Shown here: piece by piece, positions 7,276 through 32,000 of the stretch
Numbering within the stretch: position 1 is the first letter of the stretch
How the letters are laid out: each line of letters opens with the position of its first letter
Origin: Candidatus Saccharimonadota bacterium
GTDB taxonomy: Bacteria > Patescibacteriota > Microgenomatia > UBA1406 > GWC2-37-13
Direction of reading: 5' to 3'
NCBI GenBank assembly: GCA_001790095.1
Contig: MGBH01000001.1
Span: 990,001-1,022,000 of the forward strand
DNA length: 32,000 nt
Position numbers and translations under genes: made by a program
Notes under the pieces: generated by a model
Seen by the model: the letters and a program-made list of their open reading frames with translations, nothing else
Database searches by the model: none
What the model was told of the DNA's origin: nothing

Positions 7276-7314
7276 AGTAATTTACTTCAAACTAATAAAT
7301 AAAGTGTTTCTGAT

Positions 7315-7397: not shown

Positions 7398-7405
7398 GCA
7401 TTTTT

Positions 7406-8419: not shown

Positions 8420-8436
8420 AATAATGAATCAATCGC

Positions 8437-8509
8437 AAATGTCAAATCTCAAAACTCAAATCTTGTTATAGATTTACGATTTGAAATGTAGATTTGCCAT
8501 TTGACATTT
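8437..8509 (-). terminator. heptamer-repeat hairpin downstream of fbp (candidate terminator or RNA-stability element)
   Basis: Outer stem aaatgtcaaat (8437-8447) pairs with atttgacattt (8499-8509). Inner stem aaatct (8458-8463) pairs with agattt (8470-8475) around the loop tgttat. The arms are tandem CAAATNT heptamers. An A/T-rich stretch follows on the minus strand. Confidence 0.5.
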
Positions 8510-8524
8510 AAGATCTAAAATAAC

Positions 8525-16712: not shown

Positions 16713-18002
16713 ATGGTTAGTTATCTTCCAAAAACCATCTTTGTTTTGTTTTTTACCCTTATTTTTTTACTTGAGGGCCTATCTTTTAAAAAAGGAAGAG
16801 AGATCTCATATGTACTTATTTTGTGTATGCCGTCTTTTTTATTTTACCTTCATTTTATGTTTAAAAATAGAATAAAATTAAGCCCGTTTGTGGGGTTTGT
16901 CAGCGCCCTTTATATTGTGTTTGTTTCGTTGTCTGCTCTTTCCTCTAAACAAATAAACGTCTCTATTGAGGGCGTATTACTTACAATTGCAGTCGTCTCA
17001 CTTTTTATTTATTCTTCATACCATAGAGACGAATTACAAAACATAGTCCTTGCTATGATAATGATTTTGTCATTTGTTTTTATCAGTCGTCATGTTTTGT
17101 ACCGATTAATACCAATTGATTTTGGAGGTCTACTTACTTTATCAGCATTTCAGTTTTTTTACTCTTTTTATCCAAACCATAATCAGCTTGGGACTTTTTT
17201 AACTCTTCCAATAATTACATGTTTTTTTTATCTCTTTTTTACTGCACCTTCTGTAAAGACACCAACAAGTGAGTCGTTTATCAAAAAGACAATGTCGTGG
17301 CTTCTTACAAAAAAACATATATTACTTATACTCTTTTACTTTCCTTTTTTTATTTTTTCTTATTCCCGCTCGAGTTACAATTCCGTATTTTGGACCTTTA
17401 TCCTGATGTTGTTCTATAATAGAAAAATTCTTTTTTCAAACAATTTTTTTTCTAAGAAAAAGATCGTTTTTATTATTTTGTTTGGAATCATTGTTTTGCT
17501 TATGTTTTTTATCACTGTAGAAGAAGTAAAAAGTATTCCGATTATATCTTCTCTTCATGTATGGTTACAAAAATATGCAGGTCTCGGTGGAAAAAGTTTT
17601 CTCTCAGGAAGATTCTTAATGTTCTCTGACATGTTACAAAGAGCTGAAGGAAAATACTTATTAGGGCTCGGCAAACCTCTTATATACTCTCAATCATATA
17701 CTCTCCATACAAATATTGGGTGGCCATCCCATAGTCTGATAGTCGACATCATCGCAAAACAGGGTTTGTTAAGTTTTTTTGCTTTTGTATTACTTCATGT
17801 AGTTATATTTGTCAAATCAGATAAAAGAAGTGTTTTTTTCTATCTCTGGATCAACCTTTTCATTAATTTTCTTACAAATTGGAGCTACACATTCTATTCT
17901 TTATATTGTATATACTTTATCCTACCTGGATTGATCCCTGTTATCCTTTCTTCATCTACTCAAAATAAACAATTTATTCGATCATTCTACCCAATTGACT
18001 AA
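16713..18002 (+). CDS. polytopic membrane protein, O-antigen ligase/polymerase (Wzy_C)-like
   Basis: 429 aa with many TM segments. 'FSYSRSSY' and 'SGRFLMFSDML..GLG..WPSHSLIVDIIAKQGLLSFFAFVLL' resemble the Wzy_C pattern (SR..., R..w, G-x-G, aHN.yl..l.e.G..G). TATAAT at 16701-16706 lies 6 nt before the ATG. Confidence 0.5.
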   Translation: MVSYLPKTIFVLFFTLIFLLEGLSFKKGREISYVLILCMPSFLFYLHFMFKNRIKLSPFVGFVSALYIVFVSLSALSSKQINVSIEGVLLTIAVVSLFIYSSYHRDELQNIVLAMIMILSFVFISRHVLYRLIPIDFGGLLTLSAFQFFYSFYPNHNQLGTFLTLPIITCFFYLFFTAPSVKTPTSESFIKKTMSWLLTKKHILLILFYFPFFIFSYSRSSYNSVFWTFILMLFYNRKILFSNNFFSKKKIVFIILFGIIVLLMFFITVEEVKSIPIISSLHVWLQKYAGLGGKSFLSGRFLMFSDMLQRAEGKYLLGLGKPLIYSQSYTLHTNIGWPSHSLIVDIIAKQGLLSFFAFVLLHVVIFVKSDKRSVFFYLWINLFINFLTNWSYTFYSLYCIYFILPGLIPVILSSSTQNKQFIRSFYPID

Positions 18003-20379
18003 ACAGCAATAGATTAGGATCCAAGACACCATTTTCTAGAAAGTTCATTAATGAGGCATGATAAGTTTCATCATTTAAGAAGGATGCCATAAAATTTTGA
18101 TTGAAAGTCCAGCTAGAATCCATACCTCTAAGACTGGTAAATTGTAGTAAGATCATTACGTCTCCTCGTTGAGCGTTTGAAGTAAAAGGATGTGATTCTT
18201 CAATAAAGCTTTTCCACCAATTAAAATCTTGTAACTGTTCAGGGGTGGGAGCAAAAGTTATACCCGCCTGACTCATAAATGTCGTTGTGGCTTCTATCGT
18301 CTGTCCATTGATATATATTGTGCCATCAGAAGCTCTCACAACAAGGTTTTGCGCAAAATTGACAACCTGTCCATCTATAACATAACTACCTTGAAATCTA
18401 ACCAGTGAGTCTCCTACTCTTTCCTCGTTTAAATATAGAGGTTCTGCCCCATATTCTGCTCCATGATAAAAAGCACGTATATTATACCAATCTGTTCTGT
18501 TGTCTCCGCTTTCTTGAGAGGAGATAAAGACATTTTCAAGAGAATCCATACCCTGCTCTTCTGCCATTTCTTGCACTCTTGTTTCCCATAGCTTTGCGTC
18601 AGCTTCTCTAACAACCGATAAATCTGATAGAGCTATCTGAGATGTATCTTTAGGAGTTTGCACCCAGACTGATACATCACGATTTTGATCTACGAAAAAG
18701 GGGTTACTAAGACCAATGGTTATGTCTGCTTCTCCTTCTTGAATAATAGTTACAGAAAGTCCATCTTCTGAGATACGTATTGATCCATCAAATACCGCGC
18801 CTCCGGCAGAGGAAGAAAAACTCGCAAGCTCTGTCCTATCCACACTGCCCCCTCTTTTGCTGATAAACCCTTCGCTTTGCAATATCCAGTTTCCGTCTCT
18901 TTGCAAGAGATACAGCTTATTGCCCGATGATCCGTCTTGAGATGATATAAATACCAAACCGCTTTCATAGGATCCTTCTGTTTGCACTTCCATCTGTGCA
19001 TGCAAAGCTCTGTTTGGATTTGCATCAACAGTAAAACTACCAACCCCTGCACTTTCTCTATAGATAGTTGACTCCCCGATAAGCTGCTGCTCAACGACCG
19101 ATGGCGCATCAATCTGAGGGACTCCATCCAAATTACCCGTATACTCACTTATCGGCATATATGCTGCATGCTGTACTCCATCATTTTCATAGGTTACTAC
19201 AACAAACGTGTCACTGATAACACCTGTTGCTTGTATGACTACTCCCTCTGCTGGTGAGTTAAGTGAGTTTGCAAAAGAGTCAGGCATGTCATATATACGT
19301 AGTGTACCTGTGCTTGTCATCGTTTCAGCTACTTCTCCTGACTCTTGTGTTGATTCTTGTGTCGGTTGCCCTGCTACTGGCTGATCTGCGGCAACGAGCA
19401 TGATATCAGGATTTATACGGGTGACATTGACCCAACTCACCAAAGCTCCATCATTGTTATAATATCCAAGTATGATTTGAGTAGTGGAAGGATCACCGTC
19501 TCCTAAATTGTCATAGGTTAAATAAGGATGAGTGCCTGGCGGCGCCTCAACCACAGCAAGCTCAAGTAGATCATAATCTGTGGCACTTAAGCCCTGAGGT
19601 AAAAGTGATTGAAATGGAAAAAATGTTTGTGCGCTTTCATCCCAAACTTGCGGTAGGATAAAATTATTTGTACCTCTTTCAAAAAAAGCCATTGACCATC
19701 CATCCTGAGGCACTGAACGGGTTATGTAATAATAGTGCTGATCAAACCAACTCTGGATCGCATCATCTGAGGCAGGATCAACCTGTTCGTTTGGGTGAGC
19801 GATATTCCAATCCTGTACCAGCTTATTGGTCATCAGCTGTAGATATTGTGTTGCCAGCTGTGCTCTGTCGGCAGAATATTCTGGGTCCGAGGAATCAAAA
19901 ATGTGCGGTCTATCAGGATCATAATACGTATCAGAACTATCTATGTGTGATCCCATCCTGCTCACATTTACCCCATCAGGAATCGGTGCAAAATTGCTTG
20001 AGCTTGCTGGATATGCATAAACAAGTTGGCTTTCTGGAGTATTTGTTACAGTTGAAGTAGCTGTAGATTCTTGGGTATTAGTAGCGTGTAAAGTAGGCGT
20101 AGCCCTTTCTTGAGTTGAAGTAGCTGACGCTGTAACTGTGGGAGTAGCAGTATCAGTAGCTGTAGATGTAGATGTAGCTGTAGCTGTCTCAGTTTCGGGT
20201 GCTCCTGGACTTCCGCATCCTGCCAACACCAATGATGCTGCAGCAGGCATTGCCACTCTTGCAATAGGAGATCTCATTATCTGTCCACCATAAACAGCTG
20301 GCTTTACACCAGCTCCGTTTACGTTACTAATTGCACTTTTATCAAGGTTTTTTGAATGACGCGTATGCAACTCACCCAT
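17974..20379 (-). CDS. surface lipoprotein with Thr/Ser/Ala-rich linker and shared C-terminal domain
   Basis: 801-aa track ORF. The likely true start is ATG 20277 (MRSPIARVAMPAAASLVLAGC, lipobox LAGC), preceded by GGTGGA. Low-complexity 'ETETATATSTSTATDTATPTVTASATSTQERATPT' follows the lipobox. The last ~178 aa are shared with the 15878..16687 product. Confidence 0.65.
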   Translation of the reverse strand: MGELHTRHSKNLDKSAISNVNGAGVKPAVYGGQIMRSPIARVAMPAAASLVLAGCGSPGAPETETATATSTSTATDTATPTVTASATSTQERATPTLHATNTQESTATSTVTNTPESQLVYAYPASSSNFAPIPDGVNVSRMGSHIDSSDTYYDPDRPHIFDSSDPEYSADRAQLATQYLQLMTNKLVQDWNIAHPNEQVDPASDDAIQSWFDQHYYYITRSVPQDGWSMAFFERGTNNFILPQVWDESAQTFFPFQSLLPQGLSATDYDLLELAVVEAPPGTHPYLTYDNLGDGDPSTTQIILGYYNNDGALVSWVNVTRINPDIMLVAADQPVAGQPTQESTQESGEVAETMTSTGTLRIYDMPDSFANSLNSPAEGVVIQATGVISDTFVVVTYENDGVQHAAYMPISEYTGNLDGVPQIDAPSVVEQQLIGESTIYRESAGVGSFTVDANPNRALHAQMEVQTEGSYESGLVFISSQDGSSGNKLYLLQRDGNWILQSEGFISKRGGSVDRTELASFSSSAGGAVFDGSIRISEDGLSVTIIQEGEADITIGLSNPFFVDQNRDVSVWVQTPKDTSQIALSDLSVVREADAKLWETRVQEMAEEQGMDSLENVFISSQESGDNRTDWYNIRAFYHGAEYGAEPLYLNEERVGDSLVRFQGSYVIDGQVVNFAQNLVVRASDGTIYINGQTIEATTTFMSQAGITFAPTPEQLQDFNWWKSFIEESHPFTSNAQRGDVMILLQFTSLRGMDSSWTFNQNFMASFLNDETYHASLMNFLENGVLDPNLLLFSQLGRMIE
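17998..18512. repeat. 515-bp direct repeat, copy 2 (partner 15899-16413)
   Basis: See copy 1. Confidence 0.9.
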
Positions 20380-20493: not shown

Positions 20494-23400
20494 CTACATC
20501 ACGTTCTGAAACTGCATTTTTTGTAACATCTCCATGACTCTTTCATTCCAAATAGCGCCTTGTTGTGCGGGGGTTAGACTGGCGACTTTTCCTTCAATAT
20601 CTTCCAGTCTGAAAAAATAATACGCTTCATCCAACACGTCCTGGAAATCACTCCACATTTCCCGCTTCATTTCATCAGCCATAGCTTCTTTCCCCGCTCT
20701 CATCCTGTCTGGTAGATTCGAGGCTGCCTCTGTCACAGCAAGAACACCTGAAGGTAAAACCTGAATCTTTCCTCGGACATGAGGCGGGAGCTGAACCTGA
20801 GCTGTTCCTAGCTTGGCTACTGCAAGTCCTAATGGAGTTCGACCCTCAGCCATATGGATGCCATGAGATTCGCGCACGCGAGCTGGTAAAAACTCATCAA
20901 GCCATGATCCTGCAAAGGTGATTTGAGGTAATTTTAGACCCGCTTTTATAAGACTTTCTGACCCTCCTTGTGGAGGAGCGGGTTCAATAAGAATTTGCCC
21001 CTTGTGCGGATCTATTGTCTTTTTAACCGAGCGTTCTGACAGCTCCGTCATAACTCTCACATATTGGTCCAACTTCCCCATAAATGCCATCTGCCACTCA
21101 CGAAGCCGTACATCTTTGATACCTATGTCAAGCAATGCCCTTTTTCTTTCTTCCTCTTGAGCACGAAGGTGAATGAGGTGCTCTTGAAACAGCTCTGTTT
21201 GCGCTTCATTGTCTCCCTTGATAGCCTGTTTCCAAAGATATTCAAATCGTTTGAGGCGTTTTTCGTGGAGCATATCTGCTCCATAGGCCCATTGTGTCAG
21301 GGGCGGTATAGATATCCTATCTATTAAATAAGCATTAGCAGGATCTCTTATATCTTTTTCTGATAATATCAAGTGTCGTAATCCTGGAATATCGCCCCTG
21401 CCTACACGCTGCAATTCTTGCCAAAGCTCGCGCTCAGTTGTGGCTCCTGACACAAATACCTCAGGCCCTCCCCGATCAATCACAGCCTCTTCCAGATTGT
21501 CCAATTGAAAATCCCGACGCGTCATTTGGCTCGTGATGACGATCGTGCCTGCGGTACAACCTGTTAAGGCCTTTTGAAGCGAACCACGCTCTTCAAGCTC
21601 TTCAGATGCAGTCACGACCCGAAGCCATGGTGGCCTCTCTATAGGAAGAGCTACTTGTGAGCTATCTCCTAGTTTTATTTGACGAAGCACCCGAAGTGCT
21701 CTCGGCCCACTAATTTCACGTTCTGCTTCTTCCATACTAACTACTCTCTGCTCCACTGTGTCTTCCTTACCCTTACCCTTACTAAGAAGTAAAAGGTGTT
21801 TTAAGATTTCTTCCTCCCTTGCCTCCATACTTTCTTGATTAATGAGTATTGATCCAGATTCATTTAACATTTTGATCGCTTGTTCTAAAAGATGTGCCTC
21901 CTGTGCATCGCGCATGATAAAAAGACCAACTCTTCCTTCTCTTTGGATACGTTTTGCCTCTTGAAAAAGCCTAAGCATTTTTCTTTCCTCAGATACAAAC
22001 ATCACATCAGCCAATCCTCCATCTAGACAGGTGGTTTGAAGGGTGTCGATTTTGTGTTTTGGCTGTCTTACCTGTTCATGCCTTTCTATTCTCAACACCT
22101 CAGCCTCATAAATATCCGCATAAGAGGATGCTACAGGGATAAGAGAACCTGAGGTAAATCTCAGCTTTTTATATTGTTTAAAGAGCTCAATAGGCGCTAC
22201 ACTATTGGTCGTACGCGACACCTTCATCTCATTAACAACTCGGTCGTAAAGGAGTTGAAACTGCGCATTGTCAATCCCCCTTTCTTTTTTTTCGTCCTGC
22301 TCCCATATGTTTTTTAACCGCAAAAAGACTTCATGTAAACCCTCAAGTTGTCTCTTTTGAAGAGGAAAGCCGCTCTCATCAAGGAGCGTTGCTTCTTTAC
22401 CGCCCAGATACTGCTTCTGCTCCTCTGATGCAAAAACGGTTTCAAGGGCACATCTGATCATGTCTGCGTCCTGCTCAACTATCACGTGTCTTGTTTGTGT
22501 ACCTCCACTTTGCGGGTCGGTTGAAAACTTAAAATATGATTGATTAATCTTGCTTAATACATCCTGAAGAATAGCTGAGGCTCTGTTATATGCTCTTTCT
22601 GATAGTTTTATGTGATCTCCTGCTTTAAAATAGTCCCTACCCTCACCTTCTTCAAAAAGATCCTTATATTCATATAGAGCATCCCAAAAACTAATAAGTA
22701 TTTCTTGTGTAATCTCTTGTCTTAAATCAGAAGGCATTGTCTTTCTTTCGAAACCCTTTATTTCTTGCATGGTTCTATCTCTTAAAGAGGAGGGTTTTCG
22801 TTTTTTTCTAGATTTTCTTATTTCTTGCGCAAGCCTATTTCGTTCCTCAACAGGCATTATGTCTTGTTCTCTTTGAACCTCTCTTATTCCCATCCATTTA
22901 TCAATATATTCCCATGCTTTTGCTCCCTGGATCGTCTCACTTTGGATCCATGTCTCATGGGCACGATCAAGCATCTCATCATCTGCTTCCTGCACAAGCG
23001 CTATTCTCCCCTGTTTGCTGTAAAAACCCGGGTCAATGGCTGTCACAGTTTTACCTGGTTGATAGTATTGAGACGCATGATCAAGATAAGTAAAACCGAC
23101 AGCATCAGTGGTTGCATATAGTATGGTGCTGTCCCAAACTTCCTGATGAGCTTTCTTGCCTTTTTGGGGGACTAGTTTACCGTTTTTATATATATACTCC
23201 AACCTTGTCCCCACAGGATCTCCTCCCCTCTCATTTTCTTCAACAGATAGATCTGTAGCCACACCTACTCTTATCCCGAGTTTTTTTGAATAAAAATCTC
23301 CTATGTTTTCTGCATGCTCCAAAGCTTTTGCATAAGATTGTTCAAGGATATGAACTTTTTCTCCCTGAAGGGCAAACATTGCTGCGATAAGCGCATTGGC

Positions 23401-23919
23401 TTCTGTTTTTCCCTCTCCCGTATCAAGCTGGATACCCCTGTTATCTGTCTCAAGTTTGCCGAATATATACTCACCCTTATTCAAAAGCATCTGCGTCATA
23501 TAACAAAGCTGGTTGTCGCGAAACACAAACTTCTTTCCCCTTTCAGCGGCATGCTGCTCATACAAAGCAGCCATATAGGCAGTTGTATCTTCAGCCCATT
23601 GGAGCTCTTTTTCTCCCCCTTTTGGAATACTTTTCCATCCTTCCCTTAATCTTTCCGTCACTTTTTGTCGTTTTTCTTGTTTTATCGCGGTTTTTTTATA
23701 TTGACTACGTAATTCTTTTATGGTTGGAAGAGAGTAAGTATAAAATTCATCCTGCATTTTGCCTGACCTGTCAATTGAGGCGAGTGTGCCAAACCACCCT
23801 TCTGCAGTTCTTTTTTCTTGCCAAGAAAAAAAACCTTTTGTTTGAAAAGGGTCATAGACCTTGGAGCGTTTTCTTTGTGGGGATGGATCTCCTTGTAGTC
23901 CTGTCTCTACTACTTGCAT
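20494..23919 (-). CDS. highly diverged SecA-family (SecA-like / accessory-SecA-like) protein
   Basis: 1141 aa, colinear with SecA (consensus recalled from memory). The pairs below give this protein first and SecA second. 'LDTGEGKTEANALIAAMFALQGEKVHIL' versus MRTGEGKTL..YLNAL.GKGVHVV. 'ILYATTDAVGFTYLDH' versus ITYGTNNEFGFDYLRDN. 'ALVQEADDEMLDRAHETWIQS' versus [20 protein letters not shown]. 'LLDESGFPLQKRQLEGLHEVFLRLKN' versus IVDEFTGR.M.GRR.S.GLHQAIEAKE. 'TSQMTRRDFQL' versus TNMAGRGTDI. 'GRGDIPGLRHLILSEKD' versus GRQGDPGSSRFYLSLED. Several catalytic-motif residues are substituted. There is an extra ~130-aa N-terminal extension. Confidence 0.7.
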   Translation of the reverse strand: MQVVETGLQGDPSPQRKRSKVYDPFQTKGFFSWQEKRTAEGWFGTLASIDRSGKMQDEFYTYSLPTIKELRSQYKKTAIKQEKRQKVTERLREGWKSIPKGGEKELQWAEDTTAYMAALYEQHAAERGKKFVFRDNQLCYMTQMLLNKGEYIFGKLETDNRGIQLDTGEGKTEANALIAAMFALQGEKVHILEQSYAKALEHAENIGDFYSKKLGIRVGVATDLSVEENERGGDPVGTRLEYIYKNGKLVPQKGKKAHQEVWDSTILYATTDAVGFTYLDHASQYYQPGKTVTAIDPGFYSKQGRIALVQEADDEMLDRAHETWIQSETIQGAKAWEYIDKWMGIREVQREQDIMPVEERNRLAQEIRKSRKKRKPSSLRDRTMQEIKGFERKTMPSDLRQEITQEILISFWDALYEYKDLFEEGEGRDYFKAGDHIKLSERAYNRASAILQDVLSKINQSYFKFSTDPQSGGTQTRHVIVEQDADMIRCALETVFASEEQKQYLGGKEATLLDESGFPLQKRQLEGLHEVFLRLKNIWEQDEKKERGIDNAQFQLLYDRVVNEMKVSRTTNSVAPIELFKQYKKLRFTSGSLIPVASSYADIYEAEVLRIERHEQVRQPKHKIDTLQTTCLDGGLADVMFVSEERKMLRLFQEAKRIQREGRVGLFIMRDAQEAHLLEQAIKMLNESGSILINQESMEAREEEILKHLLLLSKGKGKEDTVEQRVVSMEEAEREISGPRALRVLRQIKLGDSSQVALPIERPPWLRVVTASEELEERGSLQKALTGCTAGTIVITSQMTRRDFQLDNLEEAVIDRGGPEVFVSGATTERELWQELQRVGRGDIPGLRHLILSEKDIRDPANAYLIDRISIPPLTQWAYGADMLHEKRLKRFEYLWKQAIKGDNEAQTELFQEHLIHLRAQEEERKRALLDIGIKDVRLREWQMAFMGKLDQYVRVMTELSERSVKKTIDPHKGQILIEPAPPQGGSESLIKAGLKLPQITFAGSWLDEFLPARVRESHGIHMAEGRTPLGLAVAKLGTAQVQLPPHVRGKIQVLPSGVLAVTEAASNLPDRMRAGKEAMADEMKREMWSDFQDVLDEAYYFFRLEDIEGKVASLTPAQQGAIWNERVMEMLQKMQFQNVM

Positions 23920-25051
23920 AGTTATTATTGTATACCATAGAGCCTTTATGAGCCAGGAGATTTTGATAATGATATAACATGTGTTTTGCGTGGTAGTTTT
24001 TTATCCGTCTCAAAGATTGATCCGCATAATAATCGCGGATATGTCTGTCTGAAATAATAGTTGACATGTGTTTGGCCAAGCTCTTACTGTTTTGCATGGG
24101 AAACAACAAACCATATTTATTTTTTCCCAGGATCTCCCCTGGACCATAAGGAGTATCTGAACTTATGACTGGCAAACCGTAGGACATCGCCTCAAGTATG
24201 GCATAAGGGTACCCATCCCAGAGTGAAGAATAGACAAAACAGTCAGCCTTTTTTAGCAGTCGTCCTACATCATGCTGCCAACCATAAACAACTATGCGTG
24301 ATGAGATGTTTAGCTCGTTGATTTCTTTAAGTATCTTGTTTTTGTCTTCTCCATCTCCTACAAGATATAAATATGCTCTGGAGTACTTTTTTGTTATGGT
24401 AGAAAACGCCTTTAAAATCGTTGCTATGTCTTTTTGAGGGGAGAAGCGTGAAATGGTGATAAATATAAAGTTCCTTGAAGGTGATTTTTTTCTCGTAGGT
24501 ATTCTTTTTGTACCGTTATATATAACTTTAATCTCATGTTTTGGATAAAAGTACTTCTCCAAACCGCTTTTAACCCCCTGGGAAACCGCTATATAGATAT
24601 CGCTCTTGTCGTGAAATATAAGTCTCCCGGCCACCTTTAATAAAGGTATTAATACAGAATTCGATTTTGTCTTAAAAACCATCTCTACATTATTATGAAA
24701 AGTAAAAATGCTCTGTTGAGGAAACCAATTTATAAGCTTAACCAATCTCCATAATAAGCCTGCATGAAAATCAACACAGAGTACTTTATCCGGCTTCTTC
24801 TTTTTAACAAGCGCACTTATTAATACTATTTCTTTACATAGCAAAAAGAGGTTGGAGGGGGTCAGTGCATAGAAGGACGGAAGACTCTTTTTTGAAATAT
24901 AGGTGATATTGTGCTTTATTTTGCTTTCAACAGGTGACGGAGAAGGCTCCAGACATACAGTATGAAACTCCATGCTTTTTATGTTTGTAAGCTCTAAGAT
25001 AAACGTTCCAGTACCGCCACTTACACTTTTTGTAATAGTAAGGACCATCAT
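23852..25051 (-). CDS. GT4-family (glycosyl transferases group 1) glycosyltransferase
   Basis: 399 aa. N-terminal 'SVSGGTGTFILEL'. C-terminal-half motif 'YPYAILEAMSYGLPVISSDTPYGPGEIL' is typical of GT-B/GT4 enzymes. The 3' end overlaps the SecA-like ORF start by 68 nt. Confidence 0.8.
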   Translation of the reverse strand: MMVLTITKSVSGGTGTFILELTNIKSMEFHTVCLEPSPSPVESKIKHNITYISKKSLPSFYALTPSNLFLLCKEIVLISALVKKKKPDKVLCVDFHAGLLWRLVKLINWFPQQSIFTFHNNVEMVFKTKSNSVLIPLLKVAGRLIFHDKSDIYIAVSQGVKSGLEKYFYPKHEIKVIYNGTKRIPTRKKSPSRNFIFITISRFSPQKDIATILKAFSTITKKYSRAYLYLVGDGEDKNKILKEINELNISSRIVVYGWQHDVGRLLKKADCFVYSSLWDGYPYAILEAMSYGLPVISSDTPYGPGEILGKNKYGLLFPMQNSKSLAKHMSTIISDRHIRDYYADQSLRRIKNYHAKHMLYHYQNLLAHKGSMVYNNNYASSRDRTTRRSIPTKKTLQGL

Positions 25052-25086: not shown

Positions 25087-26352
25087 ATGCATATAATATT
25101 TCTACTTTTAATCCTTGTTCTTAAACTTCCCTCATTTTACTTTCTGCCTTCCTCATCTTCCCTATTTACAAGCCACTCCCTAGTAAAAATAGGGGTCGTG
25201 CTTATTGCTATGTATATGTTGTACGATGAAAAAATTCGAAGAGCGGCAGGGCGAGCAGTTTTGTCAAACATGCCAATTATCCTTTTCTTGTTTTCGCAAT
25301 CAATCTCAGTCATATGTGCGAAAGATGTTGGATTGTTTTGGAAAAGTTACCATAATTTACTTATCAGCATCCTTATCTTTTTTAAGGCTGCGCTGTTGTT
25401 TGGAAAAAGAAGAAATCTTATTGTCCGTTTTTTATTTTTAGTTGCCATTATAACGACAGGGCTTGAAGTGGCTCTATATCTTGTCCCCAAAGATCTATTC
25501 AGACTCTTGCCTTTTCAGAGCGAAATCCTTGATGCCTTTATCGTTAATCTTGACCGCAACAGATTTTCATTTGAGTCTCATAATGAATTTTTACTTCTTG
25601 TTTTGTTGTTTGTTTCTTTTACTTCCTTGTCCAAAAAAAGGAGATTCGTTGGCCTGATCATAAGCGTAGTATTGATCGCTTTATCGTTTTATTCATCAAA
25701 TCGCACTCGACTCATTTCGCTTATGGGTGCGTTGATATTTTTTATAGTTTCTTTTTTCCATCTTCGTTTCATAAATCATAAGGGAAGATCTGCTAATATT
25801 GTCTTTACTCTTATAGCTGCTTTTGTCTTTGTATTTATTCTATTTCCTCCAAGAGCAATGTTTGAAAGAATTTTTGCTCCCTCTGAGTCCTCTGATTATG
25901 AAACGATTATTTTCCGTATCGATTCGATCAAACACTCTGCTTTACTTCTTCAATCTTCTCCCTTGCTGGGGGTTGGTCTTGGAAACTACCCCCTATATCC
26001 AGCAATACATAGATATGTCCCACCATATGAATTTGGCAAATCAGCTCAAAACAGATATGACAAAGCTGTTCCAGCCTCACCACACAATATATTTGCTCAA
26101 GTTGGTGCTGAGACAGGAATTGTTGGTTTGGGATCGTTTGTTTTCCTCATTTTCTGGTTTATCAGAAAAGACGTAGAGATGTGGCGAAAAGGTAAAGACA
26201 TAAAGATGGTGCTTTCGTTTTGTTCGTGGATTATATTCTTAACTTTTCTTTTCAACCCATCTCATACACTGTATATATCTGGATGGTTTTGGTTTTTAAG
26301 AGGAGTTATTTATTCTAAAAATCATTCAATCCCCTTGATCACAAAATCATAG
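25087..26352 (+). CDS. O-antigen ligase family (Wzy_C domain) membrane protein; PglL/WaaL-like
   Basis: 421 aa, polytopic. 'YSSNRTRLISLMGA', 'GVGLGNY' and 'SPHNIFAQVGAETGIVGLGSFVFLIFWF' match the Wzy_C signature well. TGTATAAT lies at 25063-25070 upstream. Confidence 0.7.
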   Translation: MHIIFLLLILVLKLPSFYFLPSSSSLFTSHSLVKIGVVLIAMYMLYDEKIRRAAGRAVLSNMPIILFLFSQSISVICAKDVGLFWKSYHNLLISILIFFKAALLFGKRRNLIVRFLFLVAIITTGLEVALYLVPKDLFRLLPFQSEILDAFIVNLDRNRFSFESHNEFLLLVLLFVSFTSLSKKRRFVGLIISVVLIALSFYSSNRTRLISLMGALIFFIVSFFHLRFINHKGRSANIVFTLIAAFVFVFILFPPRAMFERIFAPSESSDYETIIFRIDSIKHSALLLQSSPLLGVGLGNYPLYPAIHRYVPPYEFGKSAQNRYDKAVPASPHNIFAQVGAETGIVGLGSFVFLIFWFIRKDVEMWRKGKDIKMVLSFCSWIIFLTFLFNPSHTLYISGWFWFLRGVIYSKNHSIPLITKS

Positions 26353-27203
26353 AAAGAGTAGTGTGGGGTAGTGATAGTCAGGTATTTTCCCGGAATCAGT
26401 GTCTGCTCTTGGGCAAAGATAAGATTGCCGTCTTTTTGCTCCACCATAACCTTGGCTTTTACGGTGATGCTTATTCTTTGGGATGAAACAGAGGGGTCAA
26501 TAAAACGACCCTGCTCGACAGCAAAAGCCTGCGTATCGTCCCCCACGGCTTTTTCAGTAATTTTAAATACCGCATCTGTACCATCAAAATAGGTATCTCC
26601 CACACGTATGCTTTCATACTCCCACGGATGGGCATATTTTTTTTCTAAAGTAACTGTTTTGTGTTCGTAAACCTCACGAAAAGGAACCGTATCTATCTGC
26701 GTAACCGTGCCGCTTATAAAAGATGATGAAAGATCCAACTCAATCGGCATCCCCACACTTATGGGAGATCTTTTAAAACTATAGCTTCCGGATCTTCCCA
26801 TGCTTGTCACTTTGAGACGGGTTGTGATATATACATCAAACTGGTTGGTGATTCCGTTTATTGATCCCCATGGATAATAACGCACCGACAAAATCTCTGC
26901 AACTGGTTTGCCAATTATGTCTTTCTCGAGAACATTATTTTTTATAGCTTTGACAAACCAGACAGGAGCTTTTGCAGTTGAAGCCCACCACATACCCTGT
27001 CCAAGCTTGACTCTTGCATATATATAGGTTGGCTTTGTCACAAACAGTTTATATAGAGAAACTAATCCTACAGACAGTATGCAAAGGATAAAGATCCCAA
27101 CGATATAGTTTTTGTAAAATAAATGAAGAAGTTTCTTAATAGCTCTTTTGTTCCTTTTTGTCTTCATATGCGTATAATATAGCAAATGAAACACAAATCT
27201 CAA
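26322..27203 (-). CDS. membrane-anchored hypothetical protein
   Basis: 293-aa track ORF. The likely start is ATG 27167 (MKTKRNKRAIKK...). Single TM 'IVGIFILCILSVGLVSLYKLF', followed by a beta-rich extracytoplasmic region. No family recognised with confidence. Confidence 0.5.
   Translation of the reverse strand: MRFVFHLLYYTHMKTKRNKRAIKKLLHLFYKNYIVGIFILCILSVGLVSLYKLFVTKPTYIYARVKLGQGMWWASTAKAPVWFVKAIKNNVLEKDIIGKPVAEILSVRYYPWGSINGITNQFDVYITTRLKVTSMGRSGSYSFKRSPISVGMPIELDLSSSFISGTVTQIDTVPFREVYEHKTVTLEKKYAHPWEYESIRVGDTYFDGTDAVFKITEKAVGDDTQAFAVEQGRFIDPSVSSQRISITVKAKVMVEQKDGNLIFAQEQTLIPGKYLTITTPHYSFYDFVIKGIE
27173..27179. promoter_or_regulatory. overlapping divergent -10 boxes (TATAAT on +, TATTAT on -) in an 18-bp divergent gap
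   Basis: Plus strand: TATAAT at 27173-27178, 7 nt before ATG 27186. Minus strand: TATTAT at 27179..27174, 6 nt before ATG 27167. Confidence 0.35.
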
Positions 27204-28013
27204 ACCCTATTGCCTCAATCTGAAGTGATACTTTTTATTGCTGGGTTTTATATCAGGATTATTTTTGAACCATTTGAATTCCTATACGGCCAACAACAGT
27301 TTATGAAAGACTTTCTCACTATGTATGCAGGATTCATCATCAAAGGACCCATACCAAAAACTGATTATTTACTTCGAATTATTCATGCAAAAAACTTGAT
27401 TACATTATTCCGTAAGAAGGAAAACCTAGAGTTTATTTTATATGTAAAAAATATGAAAGAAAATCGCTGTACTACTTTTCATCATATAAGCTCCTCTCAA
27501 CTTCAAACACTTTTTAGAAAAATCCTTCTTGCTCTTTTGGCAAAACATGACGGGTTCCTTTTACATACGTCTGCGGTAAAGATTAATCGCTTAGCATATC
27601 TTTTTTTGGGAAAGCCTTATGCTGGCAAATCAACCTCAATGAAGCTCCTAAAAAGTAGTTATCCGCCTCTTGCTGATGATACGGGATTTATAAGGAAAAT
27701 AAACAATGATTATCTTTTCTTTCAAACTCCTTTTGTTGAAAAAGAGCATTGGATAAAAAAAGGATGGCGAGGGCTTGCTTTAGGGAAACTGTGTTTCTTG
27801 CGCAAATCCAAATCCTTTCATCTGAAAAAGATTGCTGATAAACATGATGTTTTACATCTGTTAATGCGGCAATTTTTTACTGAACAAGAGCATGCAAAAA
27901 AACAGACAGACTACCTTTTTGACTTTGTAAAAGGGTTTGATGAGTTTTATATACTTTCTTTTGCGAAAGATAAAAGAAAATTTATTGAATTTATGACCAC
28001 TCATGCGATATAA
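27186..28013 (+). CDS. HPr-kinase-C-terminal-domain-like P-loop protein (HprK-related kinase)
   Basis: 275 aa. 'FLLHTSAVKINRLAYLFLGKPYAGKSTSMKLLKSSYPPLADDTGFI' parallels the HprK/P core (hG..v...g.gvLi.G.SG.GKSe.al.L...g..LvaDD.v.i). The stop overlaps the PqqD-like start by 11 nt. Confidence 0.6.
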   Translation: MKHKSQTLLPQSEVILFIAGFYIRIIFEPFEFLYGQQQFMKDFLTMYAGFIIKGPIPKTDYLLRIIHAKNLITLFRKKENLEFILYVKNMKENRCTTFHHISSSQLQTLFRKILLALLAKHDGFLLHTSAVKINRLAYLFLGKPYAGKSTSMKLLKSSYPPLADDTGFIRKINNDYLFFQTPFVEKEHWIKKGWRGLALGKLCFLRKSKSFHLKKIADKHDVLHLLMRQFFTEQEHAKKQTDYLFDFVKGFDEFYILSFAKDKRKFIEFMTTHAI

Positions 28014-28266
28014 AATAGAAAAGGGTTTAATTGCACAACGCACAACAAAAAGGATGACTGTCTTTGACTCAAAAAATTTAACTTTTTTTACCTTCAATGA
28101 AACCGCTCTTTATATTTTTAATTGCCTTAAAAGGGGGTTTGATGACAAAGAATTGGTAAAACGAATGATGAAACGCTATCAGATAGATAAAATACAGGCT
28201 GAGAAGGATTTAGAAGAATTTATACAGCTCTTGAAAAAGGAAAAAATCGTCTCACTAAAGAAATAA
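28003..28266 (+). CDS. PqqD-family protein (RiPP recognition element, RRE)
   Basis: 87 aa. 'TVFDSKNLTFFTFNETALYIFNCLKRGFDDKELVKRMMKRYQIDKIQAEKDLEEFIQLLKKEKIV' fits the PqqD pattern (..LN.ta..iw.l.dG..t..el...l...y.v....a..D...fl..L...gli). Confidence 0.8.
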   Translation: MRYKIEKGLIAQRTTKRMTVFDSKNLTFFTFNETALYIFNCLKRGFDDKELVKRMMKRYQIDKIQAEKDLEEFIQLLKKEKIVSLKK

Positions 28267-29485
28267 GAATGACCCGTATATTTTGGAATATCACCCAATA
28301 TGCAGCATAAATAACTTGCGGATCCGCAAAGATTTGCACCTTTTTGCTCCAATGGTTTGGTGATAGGTGATACAGATACATAAACCTTTCTATACCAGCT
28401 TTGATTCGTGTTTGATCATCAAATACTACTGTGTGCAAAATCTTTTTATTAAAATATATTTTGTACTGCTTTTCTATAGGAATTCCTTTTATGAGAGAAC
28501 TTAAAAAAGGGGCCGTTTCGGGAAAATATTTTTTAAGTAGAAGAAAAGTAGCATATATATAGTTTTGCATTCTCAGTGTTTTAATTTTTTCTTGTATTGA
28601 ATGAACGTATCGCTCGCTTTTTTTACTTCTAACTATTTTACGTAATAACTCTAGTCGAAAAACTCCTCTATAGTTATGGTGAAAAAAGTGAAGTGCAAGA
28701 TAGATAATAAGATTTTCGGTAGAAAGGATGGGAATCGAATACTCCTGAATTATTATGGTCCTTTTTTCATTGAGACACATATCAGTAAATACGTCTATGA
28801 GGCTCTGTGGATATAGATTTTCAGATCGACTAAGTTGCGTCATCATAAACACTGCCTCTCTATGAAGATCAAATACTACGAACATTCCGTTGATGATTTT
28901 ATAATATGCGTTTTCTACTGTTTTACCTTGGAGTTTTTTCTGGGTTTGAGAGAGCGCTGTGTCTGATTTTTTATATCCTGTACTTAACAGGACCTCTTCT
29001 GCTTTTAAAAAATCTTCTTTTTTTACCAAAAAATCACAGTCCATATATATCCTTTGAGGGTGGGTTTTTTCAAAGTGTAGATGAAGAGGTAGCCCTTTAA
29101 GGATTACAAACTCTATTTTTTCTTTTTTGAATTTTTCCGCAAGGATCACTATTTGCTGGAAATAGAGAGTTGATTGTACAAGATAAAGGTCTTGAATTTG
29201 GACAATCTCTCCGTTTCTTTTTATGCTTTTAACTTTTGCAACCACTTGATCTGCTCTTATCTTTCCATCTGACTTGAGATTGTTGTCGCCTTTGGTAATA
29301 AGGTATTTCTTATGTCTGTCTTTGTATATAACCCTATGGGCAAAAAGAGTTGCTTGTTTTCTTGTGATTAGTATGTCGTTTATTTTGATATTGATTTTTT
29401 CCCGAGGGTCATAGAAGATAGTATCTTTAGTTTTAATAAGAGGATACATGCTCATACCTAACGAGCGTATGGATGATAGGGTCAT
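28220..29485 (-). CDS. fusion protein: SipW/Sec11-type (S26B) signal-peptidase-like domain + 'uncharacterised nucleotidyltransferase' (NTP_transf_5-like) domain
   Basis: 421 aa. N-terminal ~100 aa carry 'GMSMYPLIKTKD', 'AHRVIYKD' and 'ITKGDNNLKSDG', the S26B Ser/His signature order, with no preceding TM segment. The remainder has 'VILKGLPLHLHF..PQRIYMDCDFLV', typical of the nucleotidyltransferase family (KG...R..DiDlLV). Confidence 0.6.
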   Translation of the reverse strand: MTLSSIRSLGMSMYPLIKTKDTIFYDPREKINIKINDILITRKQATLFAHRVIYKDRHKKYLITKGDNNLKSDGKIRADQVVAKVKSIKRNGEIVQIQDLYLVQSTLYFQQIVILAEKFKKEKIEFVILKGLPLHLHFEKTHPQRIYMDCDFLVKKEDFLKAEEVLLSTGYKKSDTALSQTQKKLQGKTVENAYYKIINGMFVVFDLHREAVFMMTQLSRSENLYPQSLIDVFTDMCLNEKRTIIIQEYSIPILSTENLIIYLALHFFHHNYRGVFRLELLRKIVRSKKSERYVHSIQEKIKTLRMQNYIYATFLLLKKYFPETAPFLSSLIKGIPIEKQYKIYFNKKILHTVVFDDQTRIKAGIERFMYLYHLSPNHWSKKVQIFADPQVIYAAYWVIFQNIRVILISLVRRFFPFSRAV

Positions 29486-29501
29486 TTATTTTGTATGCGA
29501 A

Positions 29502-29678
29502 CTACTCTGAACATAATGATCCAAAACAATAAGTCCCCGAACAACAAGATGTTGTACCCCCCCCACAGTTACACGCAGCAAGTAGTTCTTCTGAATTTAA
29601 AGAAAACCTTCTCGTAAGAAATAAAGTGGAAGCAGATTTCTTTTTTATTATTGGTTTATAATATCTATGTTTTTTCAT
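29502..29678 (-). CDS. unlisted 58-aa ORF: candidate RiPP precursor (basic leader + 6-Cys Gly/Ser/Thr-rich core)
   Basis: Manual translation: MKKHRYYKPIIKKKSASTLFLTRRFSLNSEELLAACNCGGGTTSCCSGTYCFGSLCSE*. ATG at 29678..29676 overlaps the TGA stop of the upstream gene (ATGA overlap). Stop TAG at 29504..29502, 16 nt before the peptidase/NTase fusion gene. Below the apparent ~60-aa floor of the ORF track. Confidence 0.55.
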   Translation of the reverse strand: MKKHRYYKPIIKKKSASTLFLTRRFSLNSEELLAACNCGGGTTSCCSGTYCFGSLCSE

Positions 29679-30271
29679 CGATCAACAGTAATTATTATCT
29701 TTACAATAGCCTGCGTAATGGTAGGATCCTCAAACGGGTTCTCCTCAGTAGTAATGGTAATATGATCATCTTCTTTAATGGTAGAAGCATCAATTTGCTC
29801 TCCCTTCCCGTTTTGGACAGTGAATTTACTATCTTTTGCATAATAATACCGTGTTGAGGTTTTGCCATCTTCATACACTAAATTAAAAGCAATCTCATAC
29901 GCCTTCCCATTCTTTGTCTTTCCTTGAACAGATAGATCTTTCGCCCGACCCTTTTCCTCAAATAAAAGACGAGCTGTTCGCCCTGTTGAGGCGTTGTACT
30001 TTGAGAGCATAGTAATATATTTTGGATGTATTGCGCCGAGTTTTTTGTTTGGAAAAGGAGTCAAATAAGTTTGACACACATAGCTGTTTGGGTCTTTGTT
30101 TAGATATCCTTTTGTTTCTTCAGTTTTTGCAGGTAACGTTATGGTCTTTGTAGAGGTATAATAATACCATCCCACCTCACCGAGTGTAATAGTAAGAAGT
30201 ATAAAGAAGACGACAAGAAGGATTTTGTTTACGTTTCCCATATGTTTTAAGTGTAGGGCCGAGAGGGGCAA
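29675..30271 (-). CDS. membrane-anchored hypothetical protein
   Basis: 198-aa track ORF that starts at TTG. The likely start is ATG 30241 (MGNVNKILLVVFFILLTITL...). Single N-terminal TM. No family recognised. Confidence 0.5.
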   Translation of the reverse strand: MPLSALHLKHMGNVNKILLVVFFILLTITLGEVGWYYYTSTKTITLPAKTEETKGYLNKDPNSYVCQTYLTPFPNKKLGAIHPKYITMLSKYNASTGRTARLLFEEKGRAKDLSVQGKTKNGKAYEIAFNLVYEDGKTSTRYYYAKDSKFTVQNGKGEQIDASTIKEDDHITITTEENPFEDPTITQAIVKIIITVDR

Positions 30272-30281
30272 AAGTCAATCA

Positions 30282-31991
30282 TTATTCGCCCCTTTCAAAA
30301 TACGCCTTTAATATGTCTTTCGCAATTGGAGCCGCTATATCAGACCCCTGCCCCCCCTCCTCAACCAATACCGTCAACATTATCTCAGGATTGTCATAGG
30401 GCGCAAACACCGTAAACCAAGCATGGGGAGCGCCTGATTTGGCGTGGGATTCAGCCGTCCCTGTTTTGCAACCGGTCTGAATAGATTTATAAAAGGCGGG
30501 GTTGCGATCTAAAGATGCTTCAACCGATGCTTTTTTATCATCGGGTGTCTCTTGTAATTTTTTCATGCGCATCTCTGTATTTTTAACCTTAAAATCAAAC
30601 AAAGGCCATCCCGTACCTCCTGGTTCACAGGCTTGCTTCATGCCTTCTTTTACAATATTTTGTGTTTCTTTTGAGATATCAAGAGTCTGACAGCTGGGTT
30701 TTTCACCCTTGAGTAGCTTTGGTTGGCATAGTTTTCCCCCATTGGCAAACGGCAGCGCTCCTTGTGCTATTTGAATGGGTGACAATAGCGTATAACCTTG
30801 ACCAATGGAGTAGTTATATGTATCTCCTAAATACCATTTTTCATGTAGGGTCTCTTCTTTCCAAAAAGGAGAAGGAAGTACTCCTTCTGCCTCATCAATC
30901 CACACGTGTGTCTGTTTGCCTAAGCCAAAAATCCCCGCCCATTTTTTTATCCCCTCAGCCCCCAAGGCTTCACCTGCTTTGTAAAAGTAGATGTCGTTTG
31001 ATCTTCTCAAGGCTTTTGTAATGTCTACAAGTCCTTCTGTTTTGCCATATTGGAGAAAATACCAATTTCCAAATGATAATGGACCCGCTTTTATTGTCCC
31101 TGTGTCTTCTATAATTGTTTTGCTTGTTATTTTTTTCTCCTCAAGTGCGCCCGTTGCTACAAAGAGCTTAAAAAGCGAGCCGGGAGGATATGACCCTTCA
31201 GCAACTCGATTGAAAAGGGGCTTCTCCTCATCCTTGAAATATGACTCAACGCCCCGGTCTCCATCTTCAAACTTCTGCGGGTCATAAGAGGGGGAAGACA
31301 CAAATACCAAGACCTCACCCGTTGCCGGCACAAGCCCAACCACCGCAGCTTTTGTTTTTTTTATCGCTTCGTATGCTTTCTTTTGCAGATCAAGATCAAT
31401 TGCAAGGCGTACTGTTACGCCGTCTTTTGGAGGGATAACAGACAATGTTTTAAGAGATTTCCCCTTTGCATCAACCTCGGTAAGTTTCTTTCCCGGTACT
31501 CCCCGCAGGTCGCAGTCATACATTTTCTCTATTCCTTTTTTTCCTACACGATCTCCAAGCCGTAGTTTGTTTACACAGTTGTCATTTTGTATATTTTCTT
31601 TGTCTGCAAGCTGACGGTATCCGACCAAATGCGCCACCTCCTCCCTTATAAGATAGGTACGTTTTGACTCTATCCTTTCCTCTTTAGAGTCTATGTTTCC
31701 TTCTTTGTTTTCGGCCAAAACAAATCCTTTTCTGTCAAGGATTGTACCTCGTTTTGGTTCTATGACGATCTCCTTTATTCTATTTTCCTCAGAAAGTCTT
31801 CTGTAATAAGAACCTGAGACAACAGTCAACTGAAAAAGCCGTAGTCCCAAGACAAGAAAAGAAAAACATATGATAAATAAAAAAATATAAAGGTAGACGG
31901 CGTTATGAATCTGTGTTGCCCGGCCAAAATTGATATTGGCCCTATGGGCTGACTGATCTGTATGAATTCTTCTTGGGAAAAGGCGTTTCAT
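30282..31991 (-). CDS. mrdA: penicillin-binding protein 2 (peptidoglycan D,D-transpeptidase)
   Basis: 569 aa. N-terminal TM, then 'YYRRLSEENRIKE..KRGTILDRKG'. Transpeptidase motifs SxxK ('GSLFK'), SxN ('RSNDIYF') and KTG ('CKTGTAE'). Confidence 0.85.
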   Translation of the reverse strand: MKRLFPRRIHTDQSAHRANINFGRATQIHNAVYLYIFLFIICFSFLVLGLRLFQLTVVSGSYYRRLSEENRIKEIVIEPKRGTILDRKGFVLAENKEGNIDSKEERIESKRTYLIREEVAHLVGYRQLADKENIQNDNCVNKLRLGDRVGKKGIEKMYDCDLRGVPGKKLTEVDAKGKSLKTLSVIPPKDGVTVRLAIDLDLQKKAYEAIKKTKAAVVGLVPATGEVLVFVSSPSYDPQKFEDGDRGVESYFKDEEKPLFNRVAEGSYPPGSLFKLFVATGALEEKKITSKTIIEDTGTIKAGPLSFGNWYFLQYGKTEGLVDITKALRRSNDIYFYKAGEALGAEGIKKWAGIFGLGKQTHVWIDEAEGVLPSPFWKEETLHEKWYLGDTYNYSIGQGYTLLSPIQIAQGALPFANGGKLCQPKLLKGEKPSCQTLDISKETQNIVKEGMKQACEPGGTGWPLFDFKVKNTEMRMKKLQETPDDKKASVEASLDRNPAFYKSIQTGCKTGTAESHAKSGAPHAWFTVFAPYDNPEIMLTVLVEEGGQGSDIAAPIAKDILKAYFERGE

Positions 31992-32000
31992 TTTTTTACT

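Follow-up and report, generated by a model that had tools for sequence, protein, structure and literature searches.

In the pseudomycoidin pathway, the C-terminal Ser of the precursor receives a phosphate from the kinase PsmK. The hexose on this Ser-phosphate depends on PsmN, which was modelled on ANT(2'') and described as an 'uncharacterised NTP transferase'; a D134A/D136A mutant of its DxD motif is inactive (PMC6993621). BsfK is a Ser kinase of a lasso precursor, whose phosphorylation is strongly boosted by BsfB1, a recognition element (RRE) for peptides that are synthesized ribosomally and modified after translation (RiPPs), and the lasso leader motif YxxPxL stands at positions -17 to -12 (PMC10368454). 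According to a review, nucleotidyltransferases (NTases) are fused to the B2 leader protease in the lasso clusters of Firmicutes (PMC8498205). In this study, we analysed a 32-kb window (the whole stretch of DNA, positions 990,001 to 1,022,000 of contig MGBH01000001.1), in which genes for an HprK-like kinase, a PqqD protein, a fusion of an S26B-type peptidase with an NTP_transf_5 domain, a short precursor peptide and a membrane protein lie side by side. The evidence supports the view that this locus is a compact, conserved, RRE-centred peptide-maturation cassette, and on balance we lean towards reading it as a minimal, cyclase-less derivative of the lasso-type peptide-maturation machinery. The host belongs to the uncultured, tiny-celled Roizmanbacteria of the Microgenomates within the candidate phyla radiation (CPR); a 100% identical protein links the window to Candidatus Roizmanbacteria RIFOXYC2_FULL_38_9.

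The HprK-like P-loop gene (27186-28013, + strand, 275 aa) is overlapped at its end by the start of the PqqD gene (28003-28266, + strand, 87 aa). This 11-nt overlap bears out the coupling of the two genes noted in the original prediction, and a stop/start overlap recurs across the related loci. The fusion gene (28220-29485, - strand, 421 aa) is convergent with the PqqD gene and shares 47 nt with it. The precursor open reading frame (ORF; 29502-29678, - strand, 58 aa) lies 5' of the fusion gene, and its ATG overlaps the stop codon of the p198 gene (ATGA). All four ORFs listed in the original prediction were found again with the same layout and coordinates, each in a conserved family; the list had missed a fifth member, the membrane-anchored protein p198 of 188-198 aa (29675-30241, long form to 30271, - strand), which represents a family designated c6. 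The public annotation, which does not call the 58-codon ORF, covers an extra 10 kb past the end of the window, and this was used for neighbour checks. The relatives were sampled as ~60 loci from ~60 species-level genomes, and the 30 of them in which 3 kb or more flanks the fusion gene on each side are referred to below as well-flanked.

The 58-aa peptide consists of a leader (residues 1-35; 29574-29678, - strand) and a putative core (residues 36-58; 29505-29573, - strand; stop codon 29502-29504). The leader carries the motifs Y6-x-x-P9-x-I11 (29646-29663) and L32-L33-A34 (29577-29585), and after L32-L33-A34-A35 the peptide ends with the sequence CNCGGGTTSCCSGTYCFGSLCSE, which contains six Cys and seven Ser/Thr residues. 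A hidden Markov model (HMM) of the leader, run over the ~60 loci, retrieved 34 ORFs at E<1e-3 with scores of up to 65 bits. The window ORF scored 63 bits in the first round and 42 bits in the second, while the best of the 7766 ORFs in a reversed-sequence control of the same loci reached E=0.26. Judged by these profile searches, the 58-codon ORF is a real member of a precursor family, beyond chance, and the earlier leader-plus-core reading of it holds at the family level.

The same data bear on the possibility that the locus is a decayed lasso cluster, or the precursor a chance small ORF, with no current function. The lasso cyclase and the B2 protease are indeed absent from the window, and the small ORF is missing from the public annotation. 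However, the architecture recurs in ~60 species-level genomes with the catalytic residues intact, the leader family is highly significant against the reversed-sequence control, and the stop/start overlaps are conserved. Moreover, the sole Asn-synthase homologue, found in one of the 60 loci, is of the glutamine-hydrolysing type. Conservation has largely refuted this explanation already, and we regard it as very improbable.

Once duplicates were removed, the window and 26 loci together yielded 32 different short precursors. Their common leader has a Lys/Arg-rich N-terminus, the motif Y-x-x-P-x-[ILV] and then K-[IV] with an aromatic residue (F); approximately 15-20 residues further on, an (E)-x-x-[LF]-L-A-(A/G) motif is followed by a hypervariable tail. 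At least three Cys residues are present in 13 of the 32 precursors and two Cys in another two. Ten precursors have tails of 4-14 residues with no more than one Cys (LLADVPR, LLAGEIS, LLAVGTC), and the other seven are short, five of them lacking LLA and ending in W..Y or W..H. Cys is the C-terminal residue in 10 of the 32. The description of the peptide as Cys-rich is therefore true of the window core with its six Cys, but is not a family trait. The many tails of 4-12 residues that are free of Cys, some of them also free of Ser and Thr, weaken the elimination of Ser/Thr with subsequent addition of Cys as a unifying chemistry.

A subclass of only 29-34 aa has the YxxPx[ILV] leader but no LLA and ends in VWTMSY, IQTWY, IWTDY or VWGGSSSH (L042:2305-2394(-), L037:4222-4311(-), L050:3086-3190(-), L045:1305-1406(-) and L035:1308-1400(+)). 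The W..Y/W..H subclass co-occurs with genes for radical SAM enzymes, an FAD-binding oxidase, a family 2 glycosyltransferase (GT2) and a QueC-like::PqqD protein.

The 87-aa protein matched Pfam PF05402 over profile positions 6-67 of 67 (E=3.4e-11, 43.7 bits). This score exceeds the gathering threshold of 23.4 bits and confirms the PqqD call. Among the NCBIfam models, the best was lasso_PqqD_Strm with 42.7 bits, and the validated lasso B1 RRE BsfB1 scored 50.5 bits on the same model, little above the window protein. The kinship of the window PqqD with BsfB1 is suggested only by these common family models. The PqqD gene was present in 28 of the 30 well-flanked loci, where it was usually convergent and overlapping with the fusion gene. 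We consider the 87-aa protein to be a stand-alone PqqD-family RRE, which may bind the precursor leader.

The 275-aa protein had no Pfam match at threshold, including PF07475, and scored 18.3 bits (E=1e-3) on the NCBIfam model hpr-ser (TIGR00679), the cutoff of which is 240. As the curated cutoffs were missed, it was rejected as an HPr kinase/phosphorylase proper (PF07475 / TIGR00679). Low HMM scores are normal for such kinases, because BsfK likewise fails every curated HprK model and reaches only 37 bits. In the kinase family, H127, S129, A130, G142, A146-G-K-S-T150 and L162-A-D-D165 are invariant. The alignment of the kinase-family profile with BsfK by hhalign gave a probability of 97.7% (E=2e-12), with 42% identity across the catalytic core, and BLASTP of the window kinase against BsfK gave 43% identity over 53 aa (E=1e-7). 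The AlphaFold2 (AF2) model had a mean confidence (pLDDT) of 88.9, and Foldseek placed PEPCK at the top, followed by the HprK/P structures 1ko7, 1knx, 2qmh and 3tqf (E from 3e-7 to 4e-4). When the kinase profile was compared with the sequences of the PDB, most matches were 30-residue Walker-A matches to ABC transporters, the informative ones being the longer matches to 1ko7 (HprK/P) and PEPCK.

According to the predicted model, in which the fold, the Walker A motif and LxADD were all found, the 275-aa protein is an HprK/PEPCK-fold P-loop protein. It is a putative RRE-assisted peptide kinase, with the precursor as its likely substrate. Thus, the HprK-like call of the original prediction stands by its fold, its invariant motifs and its match to BsfK, but not by the Pfam threshold, and HMMs alone would have failed it. 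The kinase relatives P0122-P0136 are precomputed as members of the Pfam family PF27840.

The fusion protein begins with a Sec11/SipW-type (S26B) peptidase domain (residues 1-95; 29201-29485, - strand), proposed to be the leader peptidase. It is followed by the NTP_transf_5 domain (residues 103-321; 28523-29179, - strand), and a helical C-terminal region runs on to 28223. The NTP_transf_5 domain matched PF14907 over residues 103-321 with E=2.2e-20 and 73.8 bits (cutoff 31.2). In an alignment of 23 homologues having 41-49% identity to the window protein, D149-x-D151 and D206 of the NTase were invariant, as were M13, P15, H50-R51, K65, G66, D67 and D73 of the peptidase domain, with G10 and S12 conserved in at least 90%. 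Residues 9-89 scored 47.5 bits on TIGR02228 (archaeal-type signal peptidase I), just under the cutoff of 51.85, and the fusion-family profile matched human SEC11A (E=2.4e-5) and SEC11C with the motifs in register. The Ser, His and GDNN...D boxes of S26B peptidases are therefore in place, while the curated cutoff is not reached and the N-terminal membrane anchor is lacking.

The AF2 model of the fusion had a pLDDT of 87. In the Foldseek search, the peptidase part was placed near SipA, Sec11, LexA/UmuD and SpsB, and the NTase part near LnuA, ANT(2'')-Ia and TM1012; the same structural neighbours have been reported for PsmN (PMC6993621). The call of an S26B-type peptidase fused to NTP_transf_5 was upheld by the passing PF14907 match and the conserved S26B catalytic boxes. 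A profile check of the S26B part gave a divided answer, as the motifs matched SEC11A but TIGR02228 fell just short of its cutoff. No hydrophobic segment was found at the N-terminus of the fusion, and only a borderline hydrophobic helix near the C-terminus; from this, a cytosolic or peripheral location is predicted for the peptidase, as for the partners that use ATP or NTP. More than 400 proteins of the collection searched make up the fusion family, nearly all of them 390-460 aa long, and those with a named source come from Roizmanbacteria, Microgenomates or the Patescibacteria group.

The S26 module also occurs as a separate gene of 142-146 aa in the loci L035, L041 and L045. In these loci it stands beside a QueC-like PP-loop ATPase of ~420 aa fused to a C-terminal PqqD (L035:8809-10074(+), with the lone S26B peptidase at 10067-10495(+)), and the QueC-like::PqqD fusion was also seen in L050 and L037. 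These are the same parts rearranged, and they sometimes share a locus with the S26::NTase fusion.

The protein p198 has one N-terminal transmembrane (TM) helix (residues 10-37 of the long ORF) and a beta-rich domain of ~150 aa. It had no match in Pfam, NCBIfam or PADLOC, and a homology search with it returned only itself; the c6 family was recovered by BLAST and HMM searches inside the sampled loci. At least 14 loci have a c6 gene directly upstream of an ORF with the leader, and the two form a fixed, usually overlapping pair beside the kinase gene. Besides PqqD, the well-flanked loci contained the HprK-like kinase in 23 of 30 cases, c6 in 17, a leader-bearing ORF in 13 and an ABC exporter in five. 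A leader-bearing ORF was found within 3 kb of 25 of the 34 kinase genes. The idea that a short Cys-rich ORF accompanies the kinase, PqqD and fusion trio holds as far as leader ORFs near kinase genes are concerned, but not as a constant rule, either in the well-flanked loci or in the Cys content of the family. The cassette consists of two sub-modules, fusion+PqqD and c6+precursor+kinase, which are adjacent in the window and elsewhere up to a few kb apart. The convergent arrangement of the fusion and PqqD genes recurs across loci, and all the well-flanked loci with fusion and PqqD are in Microgenomates-type metagenome-assembled genomes (MAGs). Optional neighbours in subsets of loci include several radical SAM enzymes (one of them B12-binding), GT2, an FAD-binding oxidase and a carbamoyltransferase.

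The following scheme builds on what the data show, namely which genes belong together and how they are conserved, which domains they encode (with the catalytic motifs intact), and that the peptide is divided into leader and core. The 58-aa precursor would be translated in a coupled manner with the membrane protein p198, and the stand-alone PqqD RRE would bind its leader at Y6-x-x-P9-x-I11. The RRE would then present the peptide to the HprK-family kinase, which would phosphorylate Ser/Thr hydroxyls in the C-terminal part. By analogy with PsmN, the phosphate might then receive a hexose or some other group from the NTP_transf_5 domain; alternatively, this domain might nucleotidylylate the peptide directly. 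The cytosolic Sec11/SipW-type domain, with Ser12 and His50, would cut the leader after L-L-A(-A/G), replacing the cysteine protease B2 of lasso pathways. The freed Cys-rich peptide of 22-23 residues would finally exit the cell, and it may form disulfides. The small-residue site LLA(A/G) fits the specificity of type I signal peptidases.

Several observations weigh against this scheme. Cleavage after A34 or A35 is proposed from motif conservation only. S26B peptidases normally work at the outer face of the membrane, and we know of no soluble cytosolic S26B enzyme. Some precursor tails contain neither Ser/Thr nor Cys (LLADVPR, LLAVVKM), so Ser/Thr phosphorylation could not be a universal modification, and a C-terminal Ser, as found in the substrates of PadeK and PsmK, is not conserved among the cassette peptides. 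The window PqqD and BsfB1 gave no alignment in pairwise BLAST, and about one third of the fusion+PqqD loci contain no kinase and no precursor within 6 kb. Lastly, no exporter or other transporter is encoded in the window or in the next 10 kb.

The original prediction had also found no class-defining RiPP enzyme and no transporter in the window. Both absences were confirmed and extended to 10 kb past the window end: no lasso cyclase, B2 protease, YcaO, radical SAM enzyme or other class-defining RiPP enzyme was found there. The window was accordingly rejected as a lasso, thiazole/oxazole-modified microcin (TOMM), lanthipeptide or radical-SAM RiPP cluster. The Asn-synthetase-like cyclase domain PF00733 had no match in the scanned window ORFs or in the next 10 kb of called genes, and it was found in one of the 60 related loci. 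No transglutaminase-like B2 protease was found in the window or in the annotated neighbour clusters, and the cassette has the S26B domain instead. In the core itself (CNCGGGTTSCC...), positions 7-9 are occupied by T, T and S, and the C-terminal E58 is the sole acidic residue. It is therefore unable to form a lasso ring, there being no Asp/Glu at 7-9. The B1 protein and the leader are of the lasso type, with the PF05402 match, lasso_PqqD as the best model and Y6-x-x-P9-x-I11 all present.

The Asn-synthase homologue mentioned above (L024:623-2488(-), 621 aa) has an MCGI glutaminase N-terminus and passes TIGR01536, not the lasso cyclase model. Its gene divergently adjoins a c6-precursor-kinase module, and the enzyme is possibly a tailoring amidotransferase, not a lasso cyclase.

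A different chemistry is conceivable, in which the cassette provides leader recognition, tailoring and leader removal, and azol(in)es are formed by a YcaO cyclodehydratase and a SagB-type dehydrogenase whose genes lie at another place in the genome. This would make the system one of the TOMM or linear azol(in)e-containing peptide (LAP) type. YcaO (PF02624, E=4e-46) and a nitroreductase-type (SagB-type) dehydrogenase do adjoin the cassette in nine of the 30 well-flanked loci. In L057 this pair adjoins a 116-aa precursor (L057:4460-4810(+)), whose family leader precedes an extended core of CSCSCSCSC... repeats and which looks like an azole-peptide precursor, and the window core is also rich in Cys, Ser and Thr. 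Yet the 32-kb window and the 10 kb after it contain neither YcaO nor the dehydrogenase, and the loci L011, L016, L017, L018, L024 and L053, whose precursors are Cys-rich, lack both within 6 kb. Many precursors are also devoid of any Cys. We judge this explanation to be quite unlikely.

Some leaders of the family head longer proteins. In three ORFs lying directly past a c6 gene (L009:2579-3157(+), L040:2707-3264(-) and L003:1731-2327(+)), the YxxPxI...LLA/LIA leader is followed by a six-residue Cys segment (QYCVGG, QSGCGG) and then by a terminal Hint/PT-HINT/intein-splicing domain with a Hedgehog-like G/CF junction. This architecture suggests that the Hint-bearing precursors may undergo a self-catalysed formation of a C-terminal thioester on a short core. 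In a further leader-bearing ORF (L027:11359-11832(+)), the LA-KK segment passes directly into SDYRLKKNI and a Peptidase_S74 autoprocessing domain of the intramolecular-chaperone kind (PF13884, E=2e-15). Besides Hint, this is another kind of self-cleaving domain that follows the cassette leader.

These longer proteins of 157-198 aa, headed by the same leader and carrying self-cleaving Hint or Peptidase_S74 domains, also fit another explanation, namely a lineage-specific, envelope-linked processing or sorting system that makes no natural product. The YxxPxI...LLA leader would then be an address tag on diverse cargo, removed by the peptidase domain. As a part of this explanation, the kinase and NTase would use a phosphodiester-linked sugar to connect the cargo with the glycan that the products of the adjacent Bac_transf, Wzy_C and glycosyltransferase genes build. 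In the window, the TM-anchored and weakly DUF4330-like p293 (26322-27167, - strand) is divergent from the kinase gene and forms an envelope block with a Wzy_C gene (25087-26352) and a GT4 gene (23852-25051), while a PBP2 gene (30282-31991, - strand) lies upstream of p198. The synteny of fusion+PqqD with p293, the Bac_transf phosphoglycosyl transferase, Wzy_C, GT4/GT2 and PBP2 is conserved and spans genomes whose fusion proteins are 32-50% identical. Within 3 kb, the 30 well-flanked loci contain Bac_transf in 15 cases, p293 in 12 and Wzy_C in 12, with PBP2 near in several, and a GT2 gene stands between the kinase and fusion genes in four loci. In addition, both c6 and p293 are membrane-anchored, and the only characterised kinase and NTase pair makes a Ser-phosphate-hexose linkage.

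However, PqqD-type RREs serve peptide-modifying enzymes in every characterised case, and the short hypervariable tails resemble RiPP or bacteriocin cores. The ABC exporters, YcaO and radical SAM enzymes of the related loci are typical RiPP accessories, and the envelope synteny may be inherited or functional. We therefore consider the envelope-linked system, including its coupling to a glycan, unlikely but worth keeping in view, and prefer the derivation from lasso-type maturation. The protein p293, found by BLAST in 26 loci and present in 16 of the 30 well-flanked ones, is an uncertain member of the cassette.

The membership in the 'HPr-rel-A system' that had been brought up in the original prediction did not survive the comparison with the NCBIfam models (TIGR04352/TIGR04353). 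The window PqqD scored 20.9 bits on PqqD_rel_X against a cutoff of 35. The window kinase had no HprK_rel_A match at E<=0.1, and its relatives scored 16-23 bits against a cutoff of 200. A known anti-phage defence system was likewise rejected, as the six cassette proteins examined had no PADLOC match at E<=0.01.

Some features of the wider loci stand apart from the cassette. In L016 (7197-7856(-)), L007 (5021-5683(-)), L010 and L048, the fusion and PqqD genes are separated by a gene for an AbiEii-type nucleotidyltransferase toxin, and in L001, L004 and L016 the position immediately upstream of the fusion gene is taken by small nucleotidyltransferase/HEPN-like gene pairs (clusters c16 and c25). 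Mobile toxin-antitoxin cassettes thus seem to insert between or near the fusion and PqqD genes. Many of the related contigs, among them L001, L002, L004 and L007, come from co-assembly MAGs filed as third-party annotation (TPA) under the title 'uncultured Gammaproteobacteria bacterium', and a single one bears the title Omnitrophota. These loci share the Microgenomates-type synteny and have PBP2 proteins 54-69% identical to that of the window, so the organism names on them look unreliable.

A promoter and terminator scan of 26000-32000 gave counts not above those of shuffled sequences. Elsewhere in the window, a run of carbohydrate-metabolism genes (5059-10697, - strand) encodes a GH5 cellulase, phosphoglycerate kinase, glyceraldehyde-3-phosphate dehydrogenase (GAPDH), fructose-1,6-bisphosphatase and a class II aldolase; it is ordinary context, unrelated to the cassette. 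Six window ORFs of 269-1191 aa had no Pfam match at E<=0.001 (12293-15868(-), 17974-20379(-), 16713-18002(+), 15878-16687(-), 2860-4080(-) and 4141-5007(-)), and the sole match of a 1141-aa ORF (20494-23919(-)) was a stretched SecA_DEAD domain.

In the literature searched, where most subscription journals lay outside the coverage, we found no description of an S26::NTP_transf_5 fusion associated with PqqD, nor of the precursor family. We tentatively propose that the cassette represents a new class of RRE-dependent peptides, widespread in the Microgenomates (CPR). At its core, a cytosolic Sec11-type Ser/His peptidase fused to a PsmN-like NTase would serve as the maturase, together with a kinase of the HprK family and an RRE and leader of the lasso type. 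The resulting peptides would be linear or Cys-rich and carry phospho, glycosyl or nucleotidyl decorations. Some precursors would process their own C-terminus by Hint (G/CF) or Peptidase_S74 domains, and the products are perhaps tied to the envelope of the episymbiotic hosts. If this is true, the 'accessory' trio of lasso clusters (RRE, HprK-type kinase and PsmN-type NTase) constitutes an independent peptide-maturation platform, whose leader protease, a soluble Sec11-type enzyme joined to the NTase, is non-homologous to B2. The four- or five-gene cassette would offer a compact setting for the study of NTP_transf_5 chemistry, PsmN being known only genetically, and it places a conserved peptide system with hypervariable cores in the Microgenomates. 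The leader-Hint and leader-S74 precursors suggest a self-processing step of RiPP precursors that is not described in the literature searched.

The comparison with known systems can be made part by part. The S26B peptidases (Sec11, archaeal signal peptidase I and Bacillus SipW) share with the window domain the G-x-S-M-x-P, H-R-V and T-K-G-D-N-N...D boxes and the fold. In contrast to them, the window domain has no N-terminal TM anchor and is fused to a cytosolic NTase, and it presumably acts on a leader bound to the RRE instead of on a Sec signal peptide. TOMM/LAP systems resemble the cassette in their Cys/Ser/Thr-rich cores and, in a minority of loci, in the YcaO and SagB-type dehydrogenase beside it, but neither of these enzymes is near the window cassette. 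The RRE of TOMM/LAP systems is normally part of an E1-like or Ocin-ThiF-like partner, whereas that of the window is a stand-alone PqqD. The HPr-rel-A and SynChlorMet (ScmC/ScmD) systems, which are defined by NCBIfam and have no assigned function, are the other named cases in which a P-loop protein of the HprK superfamily occurs together with a protein of the PqqD family. Cross-matches to them were weak (ScmC at most 24 bits against a cutoff of 125), and their model names mention no S26::NTase fusion.

The cassette resembles the tailoring half of a lasso pathway. The lasso tailoring clusters (paeninodin padeK, pseudomycoidin psmK/psmN and Bradymonas bsfB1/K/N) differ from it in having a macrolactam cyclase and a B2 protease. 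The cassette leader is approximately twice as long and ends in LLA instead of having Thr(-2), the precursor has an additional TM protein coupled to it, and the host lineage is CPR. The protease::NTase architecture is that of the B2 fusions of Firmicutes, with a non-homologous Sec11/SipW-type Ser/His protease in the place of B2. On the other side, both the cassette and the lasso clusters have a stand-alone PqqD and a YxxPx(L/I) leader with identical spacing of its residues, and the window kinase shares the HxSAV, GxSGAGKST and LADD core of BsfK. By its structural neighbours, the NTase resembles the 'uncharacterised nucleotidyltransferase' of the psm and bsf clusters, with an ANT(2'')/LnuA-like fold and DxD. 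The BsfA leader IYKKPQL...TLAA (…IYKKPQLTYHSTLAAIIR, followed by G…) is almost superimposable on family leaders such as MKIKYKKPQIKK…. Judged by the lasso_PqqD model, the YxxPxL-type leader and the match to BsfK, the real affinity of the cassette is to the parts of lasso pathways.

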